From an uncultured Candidatus Actinomarina sp. (GTDB lineage Bacteria > Actinomycetota > Acidimicrobiia > Actinomarinales > Actinomarinaceae): 64,000 bases of DNA. The notes under the pieces were generated by a model that worked only from the letters and a program-made list of their open reading frames with translations, did not search any database and had not been told where the DNA came from. The DNA lies in contig CACJIM010000002.1 in assembly GCA_902593475.1 (NCBI GenBank), forward strand, positions 2,427 to 66,426. The letters are read 5' to 3'. The position numbers and the translations under genes were made by a program. Positions 34,193-41,599 of this stretch are shown here, piece after piece (within the stretch, counting starts at the first letter, position 1; each line of letters opens with the position of its first letter).

Positions 34193-34858
34193 GTGAATCA
34201 AGACAACAGTATCTCAGGCAAAGCTTCAAGTGGATGGTTAGGTGTGCTTGTTTTTGTTGTTGGTTTATATCTAGCGTGCACTTTGATAGCAAATATTGCA
34301 TCACTTCGAATCGTGATTTTTGCAGGTTTTTCTATAGATGCTGGTACATTAATTTATCCCCTTACGTTTACTTTGAGAGACCTTATTCATAAAGTAGGTG
34401 GAACAAAAACAGCTCGAGCGACTATTTTTACTGGAGCAGGAGTAAATGTTTTAATGGTTGTATATTTTTGGTGGGTATCAACAGCTCCTGCTGATTTAGA
34501 GGTTGGTCCGCAAACAGAATGGTCAACCGTCCTTGGGCCACAATGGAGAATTGTGACTGCATCAATTATTGCTATGTTAATTGCAGAGTTAATAGATACA
34601 TATGTGTACCAAAAATGGGTCAGTAGATTTAAATATAAATACCAATGGGGAAGAGTTCTTTCTTCAAATGCTATTTCATCTCCTATTGATTCGTTGGTGT
34701 TCTCTTTTATAGCCTTTTATGGGTTAATACCAATAAGTGTTGTTTGGTCGATATTTGCATCTATGGTTGGTATAAAACTAATAAGCTCATTAGTTAGTTT
34801 GCCAGCAATTTATTTAATTAGGCCAAAACTTGAATGGACTTTAGAAGGTCAATCCTGA
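34193..34858 (+). CDS. yhhQ: Queuosine-precursor transporter (YhhQ/DUF165/VUT family)
   Basis: AGTLIYPLTFTLRDLI, WRIVTASIIA..IAELID, SNAISSPIDSLVFSFIAF. Confidence 0.88.
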   Translation: MNQDNSISGKASSGWLGVLVFVVGLYLACTLIANIASLRIVIFAGFSIDAGTLIYPLTFTLRDLIHKVGGTKTARATIFTGAGVNVLMVVYFWWVSTAPADLEVGPQTEWSTVLGPQWRIVTASIIAMLIAELIDTYVYQKWVSRFKYKYQWGRVLSSNAISSPIDSLVFSFIAFYGLIPISVVWSIFASMVGIKLISSLVSLPAIYLIRPKLEWTLEGQS

Positions 34859-34919
34859 TAGATAATATAATTTGTTATAAAATTTATTAATCTTTTTATC
34901 GTCGTTTAATATTTAAAAT

Positions 34920-35522
34920 ATGAAAACAGTAAAAGTTTTATTATTACTATTATTTGTTTCATGTACAGCAATAGAAAGCGTAGAAATAGTGGACAGTAAA
35001 TATCAAAAAGCTTATTTTGCAGGCGGTTGTTTTTGGTGTATGGAACCTCCGTTTGAAGCTCTTGAAGGAGTTGTTGAAGCAACCTCTGGATATATGGGTG
35101 GTAGTGTAGAAAATCCTACTTATGAAGAAGTGACAACTGGGGAGACAGGCCATGCGGAAGTTGTAGAAATCTTGTTTGATCCAGAAGTAGTCACATATGG
35201 GGAATTGCTAGAAGTATTTTGGAGAAACATAGATCCTACTGCATTAAATTATCAATTTGCAGATGTTGGTTCACAATACAGAACTGAAATTTTTACTGTT
35301 GGTGAAGAACAAAAAAGCTTAGCTGAAAAATCAAAAGTTGAATTAGATGAATCAGGAAAATTTAACAAACCAATCGTAACTGCAATCTCAGTTGCTCCGG
35401 AGTTCTACATTGCTGAAGATTACCATCAAGATTTTTACAAAAAACAAAGCATGCGTTATAAAATGTACGCTCAAGCTAGTGGTAGAAAAGGATTTTTAGA
35501 AAAAACTTGGCAAGAAGACTAG
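34920..35522 (+). CDS. msrA: Peptide-methionine (S)-S-oxide reductase with lipoprotein-like N-terminus
   Basis: FAGGCFWCME, TGHAEVV, QFADVGSQYR, AEDYHQDFY; MKTVKVLLLLLFVSC leader. Confidence 0.95.
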   Translation: MKTVKVLLLLLFVSCTAIESVEIVDSKYQKAYFAGGCFWCMEPPFEALEGVVEATSGYMGGSVENPTYEEVTTGETGHAEVVEILFDPEVVTYGELLEVFWRNIDPTALNYQFADVGSQYRTEIFTVGEEQKSLAEKSKVELDESGKFNKPIVTAISVAPEFYIAEDYHQDFYKKQSMRYKMYAQASGRKGFLEKTWQED

Positions 35523-36487
35523 TTTTTTAAAGTCTTGTAGAGCGTCTCTTTCCACTCTTTATTATCAATCTCCCAAATAACATTGATATTTTTTGTTGTA
35601 TGTGACCAGTACTCATCAATATGAGGTTCGCTTTCGCCAACATTTAGCTCATCTACAATTGTCATTCCCCTGGCTGGTCCATCCAGGACAATTTTAACAT
35701 GATGGCGATCTTGCTTTAATACAACATCATTGTTTAAAGCGACTGCCATAGCTACTGGGTCCGGCAGTCCTAATCCTGGATCTCCCAACCAATTCTGGCT
35801 TGAATCAAGAGCATGTTTGTTGCAATCTATTGTGAAATCGCCTTTTTTTGTCTTAAAGCTGTAAACAAAGTCCATTTCTTCTTCTGTTAAATTCGCACCT
35901 CCACGACAAAGCTCCCATCCAACTATTGTTATATCGGGATGTCCAGACTCAAATACAATGTCCGCAGCTTCAGGGTCGCACCAAATATTGTATTCAGCCG
36001 CAGGTGTTACATTTCCAACTGTTGTAGCTGCTCCCCCCATTATGACTATGTTTTTAATCTTTTTAAAAGATTCTGGATGTTTTTGTATGAAATAGCCAAC
36101 ATTGGTTAATGGCCCCAGAGTTACCAGTGTTATCTCATTTGGATATTGTTCAACTAATGATTGTAAAACTTCTATGTAGTCAGAGTTATCCTCATTAAGT
36201 TGAGGGTCTGGATAATTCATATTTCCCATACCGTCTGGCCCATGAAACCAGTCTGCATGTTCTCTTTTTTTCACCATTGGTTTATCACTTCCCACATATA
36301 CGGGTACATTTTTTTCACAAAGCTCAATCGTGTACCTAGCGTTAATACTTCCTTGTTCAACCGGCATGTTCCCAGAAACTATGCTTACACCTAATACCTC
36401 TACATCTGGATATTCAAGAGCCATCAATAATGCAACGGCATCATCTGATGCAGTATCTGTATCAATAAAAAATTTTCGTTTTGTCAT
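35519..36487 (-). CDS. Nucleoside hydrolase (IunH family)
   Basis: IDTDTASDDA, FHGPDGMG, LGPLTN, MGG, AEYNIWCDPEAA, PDP. Confidence 0.93.
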   Translation of the reverse strand: MTKRKFFIDTDTASDDAVALLMALEYPDVEVLGVSIVSGNMPVEQGSINARYTIELCEKNVPVYVGSDKPMVKKREHADWFHGPDGMGNMNYPDPQLNEDNSDYIEVLQSLVEQYPNEITLVTLGPLTNVGYFIQKHPESFKKIKNIVIMGGAATTVGNVTPAAEYNIWCDPEAADIVFESGHPDITIVGWELCRGGANLTEEEMDFVYSFKTKKGDFTIDCNKHALDSSQNWLGDPGLGLPDPVAMAVALNNDVVLKQDRHHVKIVLDGPARGMTIVDELNVGESEPHIDEYWSHTTKNINVIWEIDNKEWKETLYKTLKN

Positions 36488-36508
36488 AAAACTAGACTAT
36501 CAAATATT

Positions 36509-37165
36509 TTATAAACTATCACAGTGCTTTCGTAATACGTTTTTTGGATAACTATCGCTAATCACAAAATCCGGATCGGGGTTTAAAGTGTTTTGTGACT
36601 TTTCTGACATTAATTGCAGGTACTCCTCTGAATCTCTCCAGTTTTTAATACTGTATTGTTGATTTTCTTCCCACCAGTCAACTTCATCTTGAATTGTCCA
36701 CTGGTTGTCTATAGATATCAAATGCTTTTCTAATGCTTGATTTGCTTCTCTTGAGTCTTCAAAGTTATTATAAAATCCTTCAATTAATCCAGCTAGGTAG
36801 TCATTATTGATTTCATATTCTGAAATAATTTTTTCTAAACCTTCAATTCCTATTTTATTAATTCTTAATGCCTCATACACATAGTCAAGCTTTGTAGCAT
36901 CTAAGCCTGAATATGTTCTATATATTTCACTTTCATATGCTTCAATTTGTATTGTGTCAAACACTCCTTCAATAGCATCTGCTAATTCAGTGCAGTTATC
37001 TATTTTCTCAGATGCTGTTTCTTTGAATTCCTTTTGGGTTTCTTGTTGTGCTTCAGACATAGCATCTTTTGCGATAAGCATTTCCTCAGCGAATGGATCC
37101 AGATCAGTTTCTGCAGTTCCACCACAGAAAGATATAAGCAAAAGGAGTGTCACTAGTTTTTTCAT
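36509..37165 (-). CDS. Putative lipoprotein, CGGTAE-leader family member 1
   Basis: MKK, hydrophobic core, ISFC; acidic helical body. Confidence 0.65.
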   Translation of the reverse strand: MKKLVTLLLLISFCGGTAETDLDPFAEEMLIAKDAMSEAQQETQKEFKETASEKIDNCTELADAIEGVFDTIQIEAYESEIYRTYSGLDATKLDYVYEALRINKIGIEGLEKIISEYEINNDYLAGLIEGFYNNFEDSREANQALEKHLISIDNQWTIQDEVDWWEENQQYSIKNWRDSEEYLQLMSEKSQNTLNPDPDFVISDSYPKNVLRKHCDSL

Positions 37166-37166
37166 C

Positions 37167-38147
37167 TTAATACATGGTTGTGTATGTCAAGTGGTGTGGA
37201 TAATGTGTAGAATGATAATTTTTCCATAATCGATAATCTAGTTGAGGTATTATAATTGCTTTGTCCTCAGGTCTTCTTTTGTTTATGCTTTCTGTCAAAA
37301 GGGCTGTTGTGTAAATTGATGCTATCCTTATCTCAATCTCTTCATCAGTATCTCGCTCTATTAATACTCCTCTTTTAATTTTTTTATCTAGTTGAGGACT
37401 ATAAGTAGTAATATTTTTCAAATTTAAAGCAACTGGGATTATGTAGTCAGCAAAAGCTGTCATGGAGTTCATATCCTCTATTTTGAAGTAATTGGATCTA
37501 GAGAGTTCAGCGTGAATTACCCAAAATGCTAATTGAGCTAATTTGTAAAATTTAATTTTGCTCCCTTTAAACTGTGATGAATCATCAAATCTTGGAAATT
37601 CTTCGATTAATCTTTCTATCAGTCCACTTCCTTCTGAATAGAGTTTTTTTGGCCCATTGTTGATAAAATTTATCCAATCACCTTCATAGCTATCTACAAG
37701 TTTTTGTCCTACTTCATTTAATATTTCAACTCGTTCATTCAACATAGGCATTTCAATATTTCCAACAAAAATATTTTTTAGCTGCTGCAGAGAAATACTG
37801 GCCATTTCATTACCATCTGTTAATTTAATTCCTGAACTTATTGCATTGTTTACTTGAAAATACATTGCTTCGCTGTCAGAAAGAATTTTTCCATCTTCGT
37901 TAATTTCATATTTAATAGATTTATCAAAATCTGTAAAAGCAAAATTTAAAGTGTTCATAAACATCGTTGCTCTAATAAAATCATCCGCATCGTCTCTTAC
38001 AGCAGCGCTATTTGGAATAGGAAACTCCTCATAAGCTAGCCAATCAGCAACAGATTCTATGGAATCTTTATTTATTGAGAGGTGTTTAAGCTGGTCTACA
38101 ACTTTTGATACAGAACTTAAGACTTCGGAGTCCCAATTTATTTTCAC
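37167..38147 (-). CDS. Queuosine salvage N-glycosylase (DUF2419/Qng1 family)
   Basis: NTLNFAF, FYKLAQL, TAFADYIIP, EIEIRIAS, LDYRLW, HHLTYTTMY C-terminus. Confidence 0.85.
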   Translation of the reverse strand: MKINWDSEVLSSVSKVVDQLKHLSINKDSIESVADWLAYEEFPIPNSAAVRDDADDFIRATMFMNTLNFAFTDFDKSIKYEINEDGKILSDSEAMYFQVNNAISSGIKLTDGNEMASISLQQLKNIFVGNIEMPMLNERVEILNEVGQKLVDSYEGDWINFINNGPKKLYSEGSGLIERLIEEFPRFDDSSQFKGSKIKFYKLAQLAFWVIHAELSRSNYFKIEDMNSMTAFADYIIPVALNLKNITTYSPQLDKKIKRGVLIERDTDEEIEIRIASIYTTALLTESINKRRPEDKAIIIPQLDYRLWKNYHSTHYPHHLTYTTMY

Positions 38148-38195
38148 ATAAAGAATCTTAGTAGAAAATAGTAAAAAAAATTTTATACTAGTTTT

Positions 38196-39062
38196 ATGAG
38201 TTCAAAAATTTGTGTAATCGGAAGTTCAAATATTGATCAAATAGCATATACAAAAAATATTCCTGCAGATGGAGAAACGCTATTTGGAGATTCCTTTCAA
38301 ATGGGTTTTGGAGGAAAGGGAGCTAATCAAGCTGTTATGGCTGGTCTGCTTGGAGCTGATGTATATATGATTACTTGTTTAGGCGATGATGTTTATAAAG
38401 AAATGACAATAAACAACTACGAAGCAAATAATGTAAATACTGATCATATACAATTAGTCAAAGGTGCAAGTGGTGTAGCTCCTATATGGGTTGATGCGAC
38501 AGGCCAGAATAGAATAATTGTTATTCCTGGTGCAAATAATGAAATAGATGCGCAAAAAGCAATTTCATCTATAGAAGAAATTGGAGATATTTCGGTTTTA
38601 GTTGGGCAGTGTGAAATCCCAATGGAAGTCAACCATGAAGTCTTCCAATATGCAAAAAGTAACTCTGTCACAACAATATTTAACCCAGCTCCTGCAAAAA
38701 AACTAGAAAGAGAATTCTTGGAGCATATCAGTTGGCTAATCCCAAACGAAAATGAATTTGAGTTAATAAGTGGCATGGAGCCTAATGATGATAACTTTTT
38801 AAAATTTAATGAAGAGATACCTTGTAATTTGATTGTTACTTTAGGTGAAAAAGGTGCTGTTTTGGTTGATGAAAATAAAACATATTATTTTGATGCTCCA
38901 TCTGTAAATGCAATAGACACCACTGGGGCTGGTGATTCGTTTATCGGAACCTTTGCATATGAATTGTCAGAATCAAACTCACCAGAATCTTGTATAAAAA
39001 AGGCAGTAGAAAAAGCTAGTCAGTCAGTTACAAAAAAGGGTACTCAGTCTTCTTACAGTTAA
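38196..39062 (+). CDS. rbsK: Ribokinase (PfkB family)
   Basis: GGKGANQAV, FNPAP, PNENE, VTLGEKGA, DTTGAGDSFIG. Confidence 0.92.
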   Translation: MSSKICVIGSSNIDQIAYTKNIPADGETLFGDSFQMGFGGKGANQAVMAGLLGADVYMITCLGDDVYKEMTINNYEANNVNTDHIQLVKGASGVAPIWVDATGQNRIIVIPGANNEIDAQKAISSIEEIGDISVLVGQCEIPMEVNHEVFQYAKSNSVTTIFNPAPAKKLEREFLEHISWLIPNENEFELISGMEPNDDNFLKFNEEIPCNLIVTLGEKGAVLVDENKTYYFDAPSVNAIDTTGAGDSFIGTFAYELSESNSPESCIKKAVEKASQSVTKKGTQSSYS

Positions 39063-39079
39063 TCTTATTGAAGATACTT

Positions 39080-39850
39080 CTACTGATCGATAGTTAAGCT
39101 TGATTCTAAAATAATATTTGTCGCATTACTTACAGCGTCTAAATATGTGTCTTTATCTAAAGCTTCTTTTCTAGATTGGTCACCATAAATTACAAGTAAG
39201 GCTCCCGTTCTTACTCTTCTATAGCTTCCCACTACAAATAAAGCAGAGACTTCCATTTCAGAACATAATACGCCACCTCGAACCCAAGCCTCCCATTTTT
39301 GATTTAAGTCGTATGAAACGGGCATTGAATCTGGGTCGTGTTGCCCGTAAAAAGAATCTTTTGTTTGTACAACACCGATGTGATAAGTGCTTCCCTTATC
39401 TTTCGCAGCTTGTTCAAGCGCAAAGACCATGTCAGCAGATCCAACAGCAGGGTATTCAATTGGCATATACTCTGTAGATGTGCCTTCTTGTCTTACGGCA
39501 CCATTGGCTATTACTAAATCTCCAACTCTTGTGTGCTCCTGCATAGCTCCAGAAGTTCCAAGTCGAACCATTGTTTTTACCCCAATGTTTGCTAACTCTT
39601 CTACACCTATTGCCGTTGAAGGACATCCCATTCCTGTTGACATTACACTTACTGGTCTACCTTTATATGTACCTGTAAATGTTTTATATTCTCTGTTAAA
39701 GGCAATTTCTTTTGCATCATCAAAATGTCCAGCGATAAACTCTACTCTTCCTGGGTCTCCAGGCAAAATTACAAAATCGGCAACATCCCCTGGCGCAAGT
39801 CCAATATGGTACTGTTTTTCTCCATCAAGCATTGATTTTTTTTCTGTCAT
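39080..39850 (-). CDS. udp: Uridine phosphorylase
   Basis: QYHIGL, PGDPGRV, STGMGCPS, RLGTSG, DSFYGQ, SEME. Confidence 0.9.
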   Translation of the reverse strand: MTEKKSMLDGEKQYHIGLAPGDVADFVILPGDPGRVEFIAGHFDDAKEIAFNREYKTFTGTYKGRPVSVMSTGMGCPSTAIGVEELANIGVKTMVRLGTSGAMQEHTRVGDLVIANGAVRQEGTSTEYMPIEYPAVGSADMVFALEQAAKDKGSTYHIGVVQTKDSFYGQHDPDSMPVSYDLNQKWEAWVRGGVLCSEMEVSALFVVGSYRRVRTGALLVIYGDQSRKEALDKDTYLDAVSNATNIILESSLTIDQ

Positions 39851-39940
39851 GGTTGAGATGATATCAAATCATCTTTAAAAGGTCACTAAAATTTTTTATA
39901 AATTTGTAGAAATTGCTATTAAAAGTGATAGTTTAATGAT

Positions 39941-41185
39941 ATGAATATTCCTGAACTGCATCTTCCTACAGAAAACAAAGAGTTTATAAAAAATCCATAT
40001 GAAAAAATGGGAGAGTTCAGGGAAAGTACACCTGTATTCTGGGATGAAATTAATGATCTTTTCTTCTTTACTAGATATCATGATGTTAGAAGCATCCAAT
40101 CAACAAAATCATTTGGTACAACTTTTAATCATATAGATGGGTTTGAAGAATCAATTGGAAATCAACAAATACCAATCACTTCAACTGCTTATAAAAGATC
40201 TGATCAATTTGGATCGTATGAAAATTTTTGGAAATCTGAAGAGTTTTCACTATTAAATTTAGAAGGTCAGTTGCATAAAGAGCTTAGAGGCTTGGTTGCT
40301 AAAGCTTTTCTACCAAGGTCCGTACAACAATTAGTTCCTTTTATGGAACAAAAATCTGAAGAGTTATTTAATGGTCTCCAAGGTTCAGAATTTGATATGT
40401 TAAAAGATTATGCACAACCTTATTCTGTAAGTATTATTGGAAAACTTTTAGGGGTACCTGAAAGTGATCATTTAGAGTTTCTTGATTGGTCACACAAAAT
40501 TGTAAAAATGTACGATTTTGAAGTGACTGAAGAAAATGCTAATAAAGCCGAGGAAGCAGCAAAACAATTTATTGAATACACTCAAGACCTACTTAATAAA
40601 AGAAGGCAGAACCCTGAAGACGATATGATTACAAGATTGTCACAAGTCTCTGAAGATAATAATTATTTAACAGACGATCAAATTATTTGTACAGTTATCT
40701 TACTTCTTAATGCTGGACATGAAGCTACTGTTAACACTTTAGGCAATGGGCTTCACGCGCTATTAACTTTAGGAAAGTCATTTGAAGAAATAAAAAATGA
40801 AGCGGATGAAATTAATGATGTAGTAGAGGAGTTGATAAGGTTCGATAGTCCCTTACAATTTTTTCAACGATATGCCCTAGAAGATATTGAAATAGGCGGA
40901 CATGATATTAAAAAAGGCTCAAAAGTAGCAATTCTATTGGGCTCAGCCAATAGAGATCCCAGGGCTTTTGAAGAACCTGATACTATCAATTTTAAACGTG
41001 AAATGAAGGACCACAGTAGTTGGGGTGGTGGTATACACTTTTGTATTGGTACCCATTTAGCAAAATTAGAACTCGGAGTATCTTTTAACCATATACTTGA
41101 AAAAGAATTTAAATTAATAGAAGAGCCTTCAAGAACGGGTGCTTTCGGTATCAGAGGATTTAAAAATCTTTTGGTTTCAGTTTAA
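39941..41185 (+). CDS. Cytochrome P450 (bacterial, CYP107-like)
   Basis: LNAGHEAT (I helix), EELIRFDSP (ExxR), SANRDP, WGGGIHFCIG (heme Cys). Confidence 0.95.
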   Translation: MNIPELHLPTENKEFIKNPYEKMGEFRESTPVFWDEINDLFFFTRYHDVRSIQSTKSFGTTFNHIDGFEESIGNQQIPITSTAYKRSDQFGSYENFWKSEEFSLLNLEGQLHKELRGLVAKAFLPRSVQQLVPFMEQKSEELFNGLQGSEFDMLKDYAQPYSVSIIGKLLGVPESDHLEFLDWSHKIVKMYDFEVTEENANKAEEAAKQFIEYTQDLLNKRRQNPEDDMITRLSQVSEDNNYLTDDQIICTVILLLNAGHEATVNTLGNGLHALLTLGKSFEEIKNEADEINDVVEELIRFDSPLQFFQRYALEDIEIGGHDIKKGSKVAILLGSANRDPRAFEEPDTINFKREMKDHSSWGGGIHFCIGTHLAKLELGVSFNHILEKEFKLIEEPSRTGAFGIRGFKNLLVSV

Positions 41186-41599
41186 TTTTTCGATTTCAGG
41201 AATTAATTGATCAATATTATTAACAGTTACCGTCAGCATTCCTTCAACAAATAAGTTTCTATATCTTCTTTCATTAGCATTTATAGCTATAACTGGTTTC
41301 TCCTTTGCGTAGGTGTGGCCTATCTCTGCTGAAGTTCCTGAATCAATATCTTGACCAGTCAGAAGAGCAACCGTAAGGTCTGCAGCATCTAGTGCATCCA
41401 GATCATTTTTAAATATACGATCCTTGGTCTCCTGTGACATATCTGTACCCTTAAGTTCAGACTCATCAATACCTGTTTGGTCTCTGTGTGGAAGAAAGCA
41501 GTCGTAGCCATTTCCCTCAAGTTCTTTTGCAATATCTTCTAAATACATTTGCTCATGTTTATTAAAAAGTGGACCTGCGATATAAATTTTTTTAATCAT
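41177..41599 (-). CDS. Nucleoside 2-deoxyribosyltransferase family
   Basis: IYIAGPLF, FLPH, DSGTSAEIG. Confidence 0.88.
   Translation of the reverse strand: MIKKIYIAGPLFNKHEQMYLEDIAKELEGNGYDCFLPHRDQTGIDESELKGTDMSQETKDRIFKNDLDALDAADLTVALLTGQDIDSGTSAEIGHTYAKEKPVIAINANERRYRNLFVEGMLTVTVNNIDQLIPEIEKLN

Follow-up and report, generated by a model that had tools for sequence, protein, structure and literature searches.

The window analysed here is a stretch of 64,000 nucleotides from an uncultured Candidatus Actinomarina sp. (assembly GCA_902593475.1, contig CACJIM010000002.1), a streamlined marine actinobacterium that is very abundant in the ocean. Between positions 34193 and 41599 the window carries a cluster of nucleoside-related genes that includes a homologue of the queuosine glycosylase Qng1. 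We find that this gene set, together with a cytochrome P450 gene, is a recurrent functional module for the uptake and splitting of ribonucleosides, and that those Acidimicrobiia hosts of this Qng1 clade that were checked appear, from their gene content, to need an external queuosine precursor and yet to insert 7-aminomethyl-7-deazaguanine (preQ1) into tRNA. The reading we favor, and which we hold to be about an even call, takes the locus for a ribonucleoside-scavenging module and holds that its modified-guanine hydrolase may supply a queuosine pathway of the preQ1 type. An earlier note on this DNA had named six genes in the span, and Pfam and NCBIfam profile scans of the window proteins bore out all six, coordinates included; they also placed three genes that the note had omitted, encoding MsrA, an exported protein and the P450. 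The locus reads as follows.

34193-34858, plus strand: YhhQ/QPTR-family 7-deazaguanine precursor transporter (PF02592, 132 bits; TIGR00697, 98.5 bits against a cut-off of 51).
34920-35522, plus strand: MsrA (PF01625, 211 bits).
35519-36487, minus strand: IunH-family nucleoside hydrolase (PF01156, 285 bits; motif DTDTASDD).
36509-37165, minus strand: exported protein of 218 residues and of no family (no Pfam or NCBIfam match), starting one base after the qng1 stop.
37167-38147, minus strand: Qng1-like N-glycosylase homologue (Q_salvage/DUF2419; PF10343, 175 bits against a cut-off of 25), at the head of the operon.
38196-39062, plus strand: ribokinase (TIGR02152, 299.1 bits, marginal against a cut-off of 299.65; motifs GSSNID, GGKGAN and TTGAGD intact).
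39080-39850, minus strand: uridine phosphorylase (TIGR01718, 290 bits against a cut-off of 280).
39941-41185, plus strand: cytochrome P450, intact (PF00067, 102 bits; heme loop WGGGIHFCIG and ExxR present).
41177-41599, minus strand: nucleoside 2-deoxyribosyltransferase (NDT)-family protein of 140 residues (PF05014, 80 bits; closest solved structures are small NDTs).

The dependence on salvage that the earlier note had proposed is borne out by the queuosine genes of the genus. QueC was found in none of 60 genus genomes, and QueD, QueF and QueH were not found in the genome from which the window comes (hereafter the source genome). The two weak QueC matches in the source genome proved to be TilS and NadE. 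The late steps, by contrast, are kept: in the source genome queA is directly followed by tgt, the gene for tRNA-guanine transglycosylase (TGT), the two genes are adjacent at 27/27 genus loci, and TGT is present in 54 of the 60 genus genomes, including all 11 of high quality. A queG-like gene of the source genome (L004:1390-2499) scores 188 bits against an NCBIfam cut-off of 200, and such genes occur in 33/37 genus genomes, where they score 162-189 bits, just below the cut-off, across nearly the full model; they appear to represent a diverged QueG lineage. Judged by this gene content, Actinomarina cannot make 7-cyano-7-deazaguanine (preQ0) or preQ1 and keeps the late enzymes, namely a preQ1-type tgt, queA and a queG-like gene. 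QueF does occur in 3/37 genus genomes, as the last gene of the core nucleoside ATP-binding cassette (ABC) operon, following iunH-Bmp-ABC-permease-permease-amidohydrolase-adenosine deaminase (L079:9698-10093 in G470, G020:C12 and G071:C9), and these three strains would salvage preQ0 via another accessory route. The source genome is an 837-kb assembly that is 60.5% complete by marker count; as a single-contig Actinomarina sister genome of 1.0 Mb scores just 87%, such marker-based figures probably underestimate the completeness of streamlined genomes of this kind.

Queuine-inserting bacterial TGTs carry the pocket motif GG[LS][AS]G, whereas preQ1 enzymes carry GGLAVGE, in which the Val clashes with queuine (PMC10723273). 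The TGT of the source genome matches the bacterial equivalog model TIGR00430 at 407 bits (cut-off 307) and has the loop GGLAIGE, with Ile in place of Val as in the Thermotoga enzyme, and hence a bulkier residue at the position said to clash. The loop reads GGLA[IL]GE in all 23 genus genomes checked, with or without qng1 and whatever the type of the variable gene island described below; no co-variation of the pocket with island type was seen across these 23, and the short queuine-type loop is present in none of their TGTs or in that of the source genome. One deviation from the canonical enzyme lies at the Cys158 position, which is Leu in the source enzyme and Leu or Val in the genus.

These residues bear on the route that the earlier note had inferred, in which Qng1 and IunH (the latter acting as QueK) would free queuine, YhhQ would import it as well, and TGT would insert it directly. 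The gene set does match the known parts of queuine salvage, and the genus is without de novo genes; moreover, a Bartonella TGT of the long-loop GGLAVG type is reported to use queuine at high concentration. Even so, the GGLAIGE and GGLA[IL]GE loops make direct queuine insertion by the Actinomarina TGT unlikely, the Bartonella exception notwithstanding. A genome without queA and queG/queH, the trait that goes with queuine-type enzymes, is not what is found here either, as queA and the queG-like gene are retained throughout the genus, and the Qng1 homologue is without D69, D207, Y93 and W94 of the characterised enzyme. We therefore consider the direct queuine route as a whole very unlikely. Of the note's proposal, salvage and ribose recycling are supported and the queuine-inserting TGT is not, given the TIGR00430 score, the position of tgt directly after queA, the pocket loop and the queG-like gene; of the combination that the note had said would refute it, full de novo synthesis with a canonical preQ1 TGT, the genus shows a TGT of canonical preQ1 type and no de novo pathway.

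The Qng1 and QNG1 proteins of Sphaerobacter thermophilus and human are queuosine-5'-phosphate N-glycosylases, and alanine variants of the proton-relay acids D69 and D207 of Qng1 fail to complement (PMC9881137). The window protein aligns with the solved S. thermophilus enzyme (StQng1) at E = 1.5e-30 and keeps its catalytic helix-hairpin-helix residues (K199 as K202 and D231 as D234), its ribose-stacking residues (F75 as F71 and Y232 as Y235), its deazaguanine-binding residues (D298 as D304 and W302 as W308) and the C-terminal Tyr (Y326). The two proton-relay positions, both Asp in the solved bacterial and human enzymes, are replaced (D69 by N65 and D207 by V210); across 106 representatives of the PF10343 family, Asp stands at the D69-equivalent in 15 and at the D207-equivalent in 25. 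The side-chain pocket is changed from G-Y-W to D-S-E (Y93 to S92 and W94 to E93), a gap stands opposite W48, and Val replaces H53. Of the cyclopentenediol pocket formed by W48, H53, Y93, W94 and W299, only position 299 is still aromatic, being Tyr as in human QNG1, a protein that agrees with the bacterial enzyme at the side-chain sites. The window protein falls in a separate clade (tree support 0.992) with the signature T72, D91-[STA]-[EDL]93, W209 and H212, of which W209 and H212 are new relative to StQng1. The pocket for the 7-substituent appears to have been rebuilt in this clade, and since the side-chain-binding residues are not kept, queuine release by the window protein stays putative.

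We looked for the clade beyond the genus. PF10343 is present in 67/401 sampled genomes of class Acidimicrobiia, a tally that includes the unpublished genome G787, on which no other count rests. The clade is present in 18 high-quality genomes of Acidimicrobiia that belong to five other families, and every one of them has queA and tgt adjacent, a TGT loop of the form GGL[SA]VGE and no detectable QueC; among holders of canonical-type (Asp-retaining) PF10343 proteins checked in the class, QueC is present in 3/4. The gene for ribokinase (rbsK) adjoins the clade gene in all 13 genomes in which position 93 is Glu. In the fifth family, in which it is Leu, rbsK lies within ~7 kb in 4/5 genomes and the clade gene sits inside a LacI-regulated ABC operon with iunH and a gene for a transporter of the major facilitator superfamily (MFS). 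The pairing of kinase and glycosylase extends over six families and is seen in both divergent and same-strand arrangements. Near the clade gene in the five other families, no conserved extra enzyme able to convert queuine was found besides rbsK, iunH and transporters.

A scan of one genome per species, which found at least 585 relatives, placed the clade outside the genus in sponge-associated Acidimicrobiia, Nanopelagicales, Chloroflexia, Anaerolineae, Nitriliruptoraceae and Thermoanaerobaculia. Within 9 kb of the clade gene at 47 loci outside Actinomarinales, rbsK was found 35 times, iunH 20, the uridine phosphorylase gene (udp) 10, the NDT gene (ndt) 8 and P450 4 times, while neither yhhQ nor tgt was found at any of the 47. 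The P450 loci include an Anaerolineaceae genome and Nanopelagicales-like bins, and in Chloroflexia and Nanopelagicales ndt is the immediate neighbour of the clade gene. Because rbsK, iunH, udp, ndt and P450 recur in this way in other lineages, their grouping around the clade gene is more than chance. The ribose recycling suggested by the earlier note is supported as well, since members of this Qng1 clade constantly have ribokinase as a neighbour.

Such a partner also suits a purely nutritional role, in which the Qng1-like enzyme would split some abundant nucleoside or nucleotide of guanine type (7-methylguanosine, for example, or forms of guanosine) for ribose and nitrogen, would have no part in tRNA queuosine, and would stand near yhhQ by an accident of the insertion hot spot. 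Besides the ribokinase, this would fit the LacI-regulated sugar/nucleoside ABC operon of one family, the lack of conservation of the queuosine-specific pocket, the 47 other loci without yhhQ and the optional status of qng1 within the genus. On the other hand, the known substrates of the family are all 7-deazaguanine compounds and the residues that bind the deazaguanine ring are kept; the clade-bearing genomes of other families are without QueC yet have tgt-queA (18/18); and this strain has gained a transporter of a family specific for queuosine precursors along with the island genes for IunH and the secreted protein. We regard the nutritional account as possible, though rather unlikely.

Within the genus, the locus lies in a syntenic backbone, dnaB-rpsF-panB-msrA ... 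rbsK-udp-P450-metB, and the space between msrA and rbsK is found in four states. Type 0 has no insert, with msrA 10 bases from rbsK; type B has qng1 alone; type A, to which the window belongs, has qng1, the exported-protein gene and iunH, with yhhQ ahead of msrA; and type C has qng1-iunH2-MFS-exported protein-EamA-iunH. Overall, qng1 is present in 23/36 genus genomes and yhhQ in 7/61, the latter in type-A islands only, while ribokinase is a backbone gene that is kept also in genomes without qng1. A core IunH is encoded elsewhere in every genus genome but one (that of the source genome on contig C7, as part of a Bmp-type ABC operon); the island IunH is an extra paralogue, encoded by the last gene of the qng1 operon. 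The NDT-family gene, though 3 kb from the island, is present at 7/7 loci of types A and C and was not found at the seven type B or type 0 loci that cover the site. In summary, qng1, iunH, the exported-protein gene and yhhQ vary from strain to strain as inserts at a single hot spot, and msrA, a backbone gene outside the system, marks one of its edges. Contigs with Actinomarina-type synteny and 60-97% identity were also seen in bins labelled Flavobacteriales, Crocinitomicaceae, Gammaproteobacteria, Rickettsiales and Chitinophagales (L149, L153, L156, L163 and L188), which is probably mis-binning.

In the scavenging module that we favor, nucleosides from RNA debris would be imported, the source genome having the core Bmp-type ABC system on contig C7 as well, and the Qng1-like enzyme and the extra IunH would split modified ribonucleosides or nucleotides of guanine type that are poor substrates for ordinary enzymes. 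The freed ribose would pass to ribokinase and YhhQ would move the free 7-deazaguanine base; a base bound for tRNA would have to go in as preQ1, with QueA and QueG completing it. No enzyme for a step from queuine to preQ1 was found when QueL-like proteins were sought in the source genome and five near-complete sister genomes. These six genomes share a core set of radical S-adenosylmethionine (SAM) proteins (MiaB, LipB-LipA, CofG and CofH), and the two type-A genomes have these four and no more; G066, a genome with a type-C island, has a fifth radical-SAM match, weak at 35.7 bits and not assigned an identity. No candidate for QueE or for a QueL-like queuine lyase emerged from the six genomes, the weak match in G066 not having been followed, and the identified proteins, being MiaB, LipB-LipA, CofG and CofH, are ruled out as the lyase. 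LipB and LipA are fused into one protein of 542 residues (L006:565-2193), and CofH, at 628 residues, has an N-terminal extension of ~250 residues. The lack of a converting enzyme suggests either that the clade acts on a substrate other than queuosine, such as a preQ1-type nucleoside, or that an unrecognised enzyme carries out the conversion.

A different order of events would have the ribokinase-like enzyme 5'-phosphorylate the imported modified nucleoside and the Qng1-like enzyme then cleave the resulting nucleotide. This order, kinase then glycosylase, is followed by human cells, in which no kinase for the step is known, and by YeiC/YeiN, the E. coli pair that handles pseudouridine. It would suit the pairing of the two genes in six families in both arrangements, and the characterised Qng1 enzymes prefer queuosine 5'-phosphate, for which no kinase is known; the term "queuosine kinase" was not found in the literature searched. 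The kinase, however, has all the ribokinase motifs, its top 13 solved relatives are all ribokinases, and it is kept in genus genomes without qng1. Nor was a fusion of a kinase with a clade protein found; the only fused forms, both from metagenomes, join the clade protein to a LacI-type regulator with binding domain (698 residues) or to a GNAT acetyltransferase domain (500 residues) (P0411 and P0125). We think it improbable that the two enzymes work in this sequence.

Several points weigh against a feed into the queuosine pathway. The association of the clade with tgt-queA in genomes without QueC may be phylogenetic, and the clade at large is less firmly tied to queuosine, since yhhQ stands beside it in one Actinomarina sublineage only and at none of the 47 loci elsewhere. 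Nor does a micronutrient, with its trace flux, account for ribokinase as a fixed partner. In addition, any substrate named for the clade is putative, and with a source genome that is only about 60% complete, the gene absences rest mainly on sister genomes.

A bolder proposal, which we find doubtful, is that the recurrent module gives bacteria a third, oxygen-tolerant way to salvage queuosine, with preQ1 as its end point. It comes in two possible versions. In the first, clade enzymes with the acidic D-S-E pocket would free preQ1 from preQ1-type nucleosides, possibly from the debris of neighbours such as Pelagibacter, which has been proposed to salvage preQ1 and is without the enzymes for turning preQ1-tRNA into Q-tRNA. 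In the other version, the P450, which is conserved and has no other evident role, would strip the cyclopentenediol from queuine through an oxidative N-dealkylation and would so be the aerobic equivalent of the radical enzyme QueL. Either version would explain why the clade is found in genomes that have preQ1-type tgt-queA and no de novo genes.

As for the remaining features of the locus, qng1, the exported-protein gene and iunH are spaced by 1 and 21 bases and face rbsK over a 48-base gap, and from this tight arrangement the three genes look like one operon. The 218-residue protein is exported and probably lipid-anchored. It has 159 relatives only, all of marine Acidimicrobiia type, in which C14, C58 and C215 are invariant; its AlphaFold model is a helical bundle (predicted local distance difference test score, pLDDT, 72) that gave no significant fold match against the PDB. 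The type-A version alone has an extra acidic stretch of ~30 residues directly after the lipobox-like Cys in the alignment. For the island IunH, the closest solved structure is the Sulfolobus purine nucleosidase 3t8i, and the assignment is one to the family (285 bits), the model libraries being without a QueK-specific profile. The window YhhQ scores only 32 bits with the E. coli-type equivalog model; in published work, the base that QPTR proteins carry (preQ0/preQ1 or queuine) has been assigned from similarity networks together with transport assays (PMC10723273). The P450 differs much more between island types (~53% identity) than does udp, which flanks it (80-97%). An Rfam scan detected only tRNAs in the window and no credible riboswitch, the preQ1 type included, between 33000 and 42000, and scans of the locus for promoters and terminators gave no excess over shuffled controls.

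Queuosine is a shared micronutrient, and current models give bacteria two ways to recycle it, by inserting queuine directly or through queuine lyase. An abundant ocean bacterium and its relatives in sponges, lakes and soils pair a Qng1-family enzyme with preQ1-type insertion and have neither known bridge between the two, which points to a gap in the pathway map. The locus offers concrete candidates for study, namely the clade enzyme and its partner ribokinase, as well as the P450 and the secreted small protein. Furthermore, the database label "queuosine salvage protein" is attached to at least one clade that probably acts on another substrate.

Compared with the known Qng1/QNG1 enzymes, the window protein belongs to the same PF10343 family and keeps the catalytic, ribose-binding and deazaguanine-binding residues along with the C-terminal Tyr, but it lies in a separate clade, its side-chain pocket is altered and its hosts have a preQ1-type TGT with QueA; S. 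thermophilus, the host of StQng1, is described as lacking canonical de novo biosynthesis genes and salvaging queuine. In the indirect salvage of Clostridioides difficile, as summarised in two papers, the hydrolase QueK and the importer QueT are joined by the radical enzyme QueL, which converts queuine to preQ1 (PMC10723273, PMC11130926). Actinomarina is similar in that an IunH-family hydrolase and a transporter would feed a canonical TGT of preQ1 type, with QueA and QueG acting after it. It differs in that no QueL-like radical-SAM enzyme was found in the source and five near-complete sister genomes (the one weak match being unassigned), in that the transporter is YhhQ, or of MFS and EamA types in sister strains, rather than an energy-coupling factor (ECF) transporter, and in that the island adds a Qng1-like enzyme. 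With the direct queuine salvage of Chlamydia trachomatis, Actinomarina shares a YhhQ-family transporter and the absence of de novo synthesis; unlike the queuine-type TGT of that organism, its own has the long loop GGLAIGE, and queA and the queG-like gene are kept. Bartonella henselae and Pelagibacter have a preQ1-type TGT and a QPTR transporter but no de novo genes (PMC10723273), and like them Actinomarina is a salvage-dependent bacterium with a preQ1-type pocket motif; those two are without QueA, QueG and QueH, whereas Actinomarina keeps queA and the queG-like gene as late enzymes and adds hydrolases. Finally, the mismatch between a Qng1 relative and preQ1 insertion has a published hint, since a ureide-permease-family transporter encoded beside qng1 in Acidobacteriota carried preQ0 and preQ1 and not queuosine or queuine, a result that its authors called unexpected (PMC11130926). 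That case involves another transporter family and another phylum, but it too is a qng1 neighbourhood that points to preQ-type bases.

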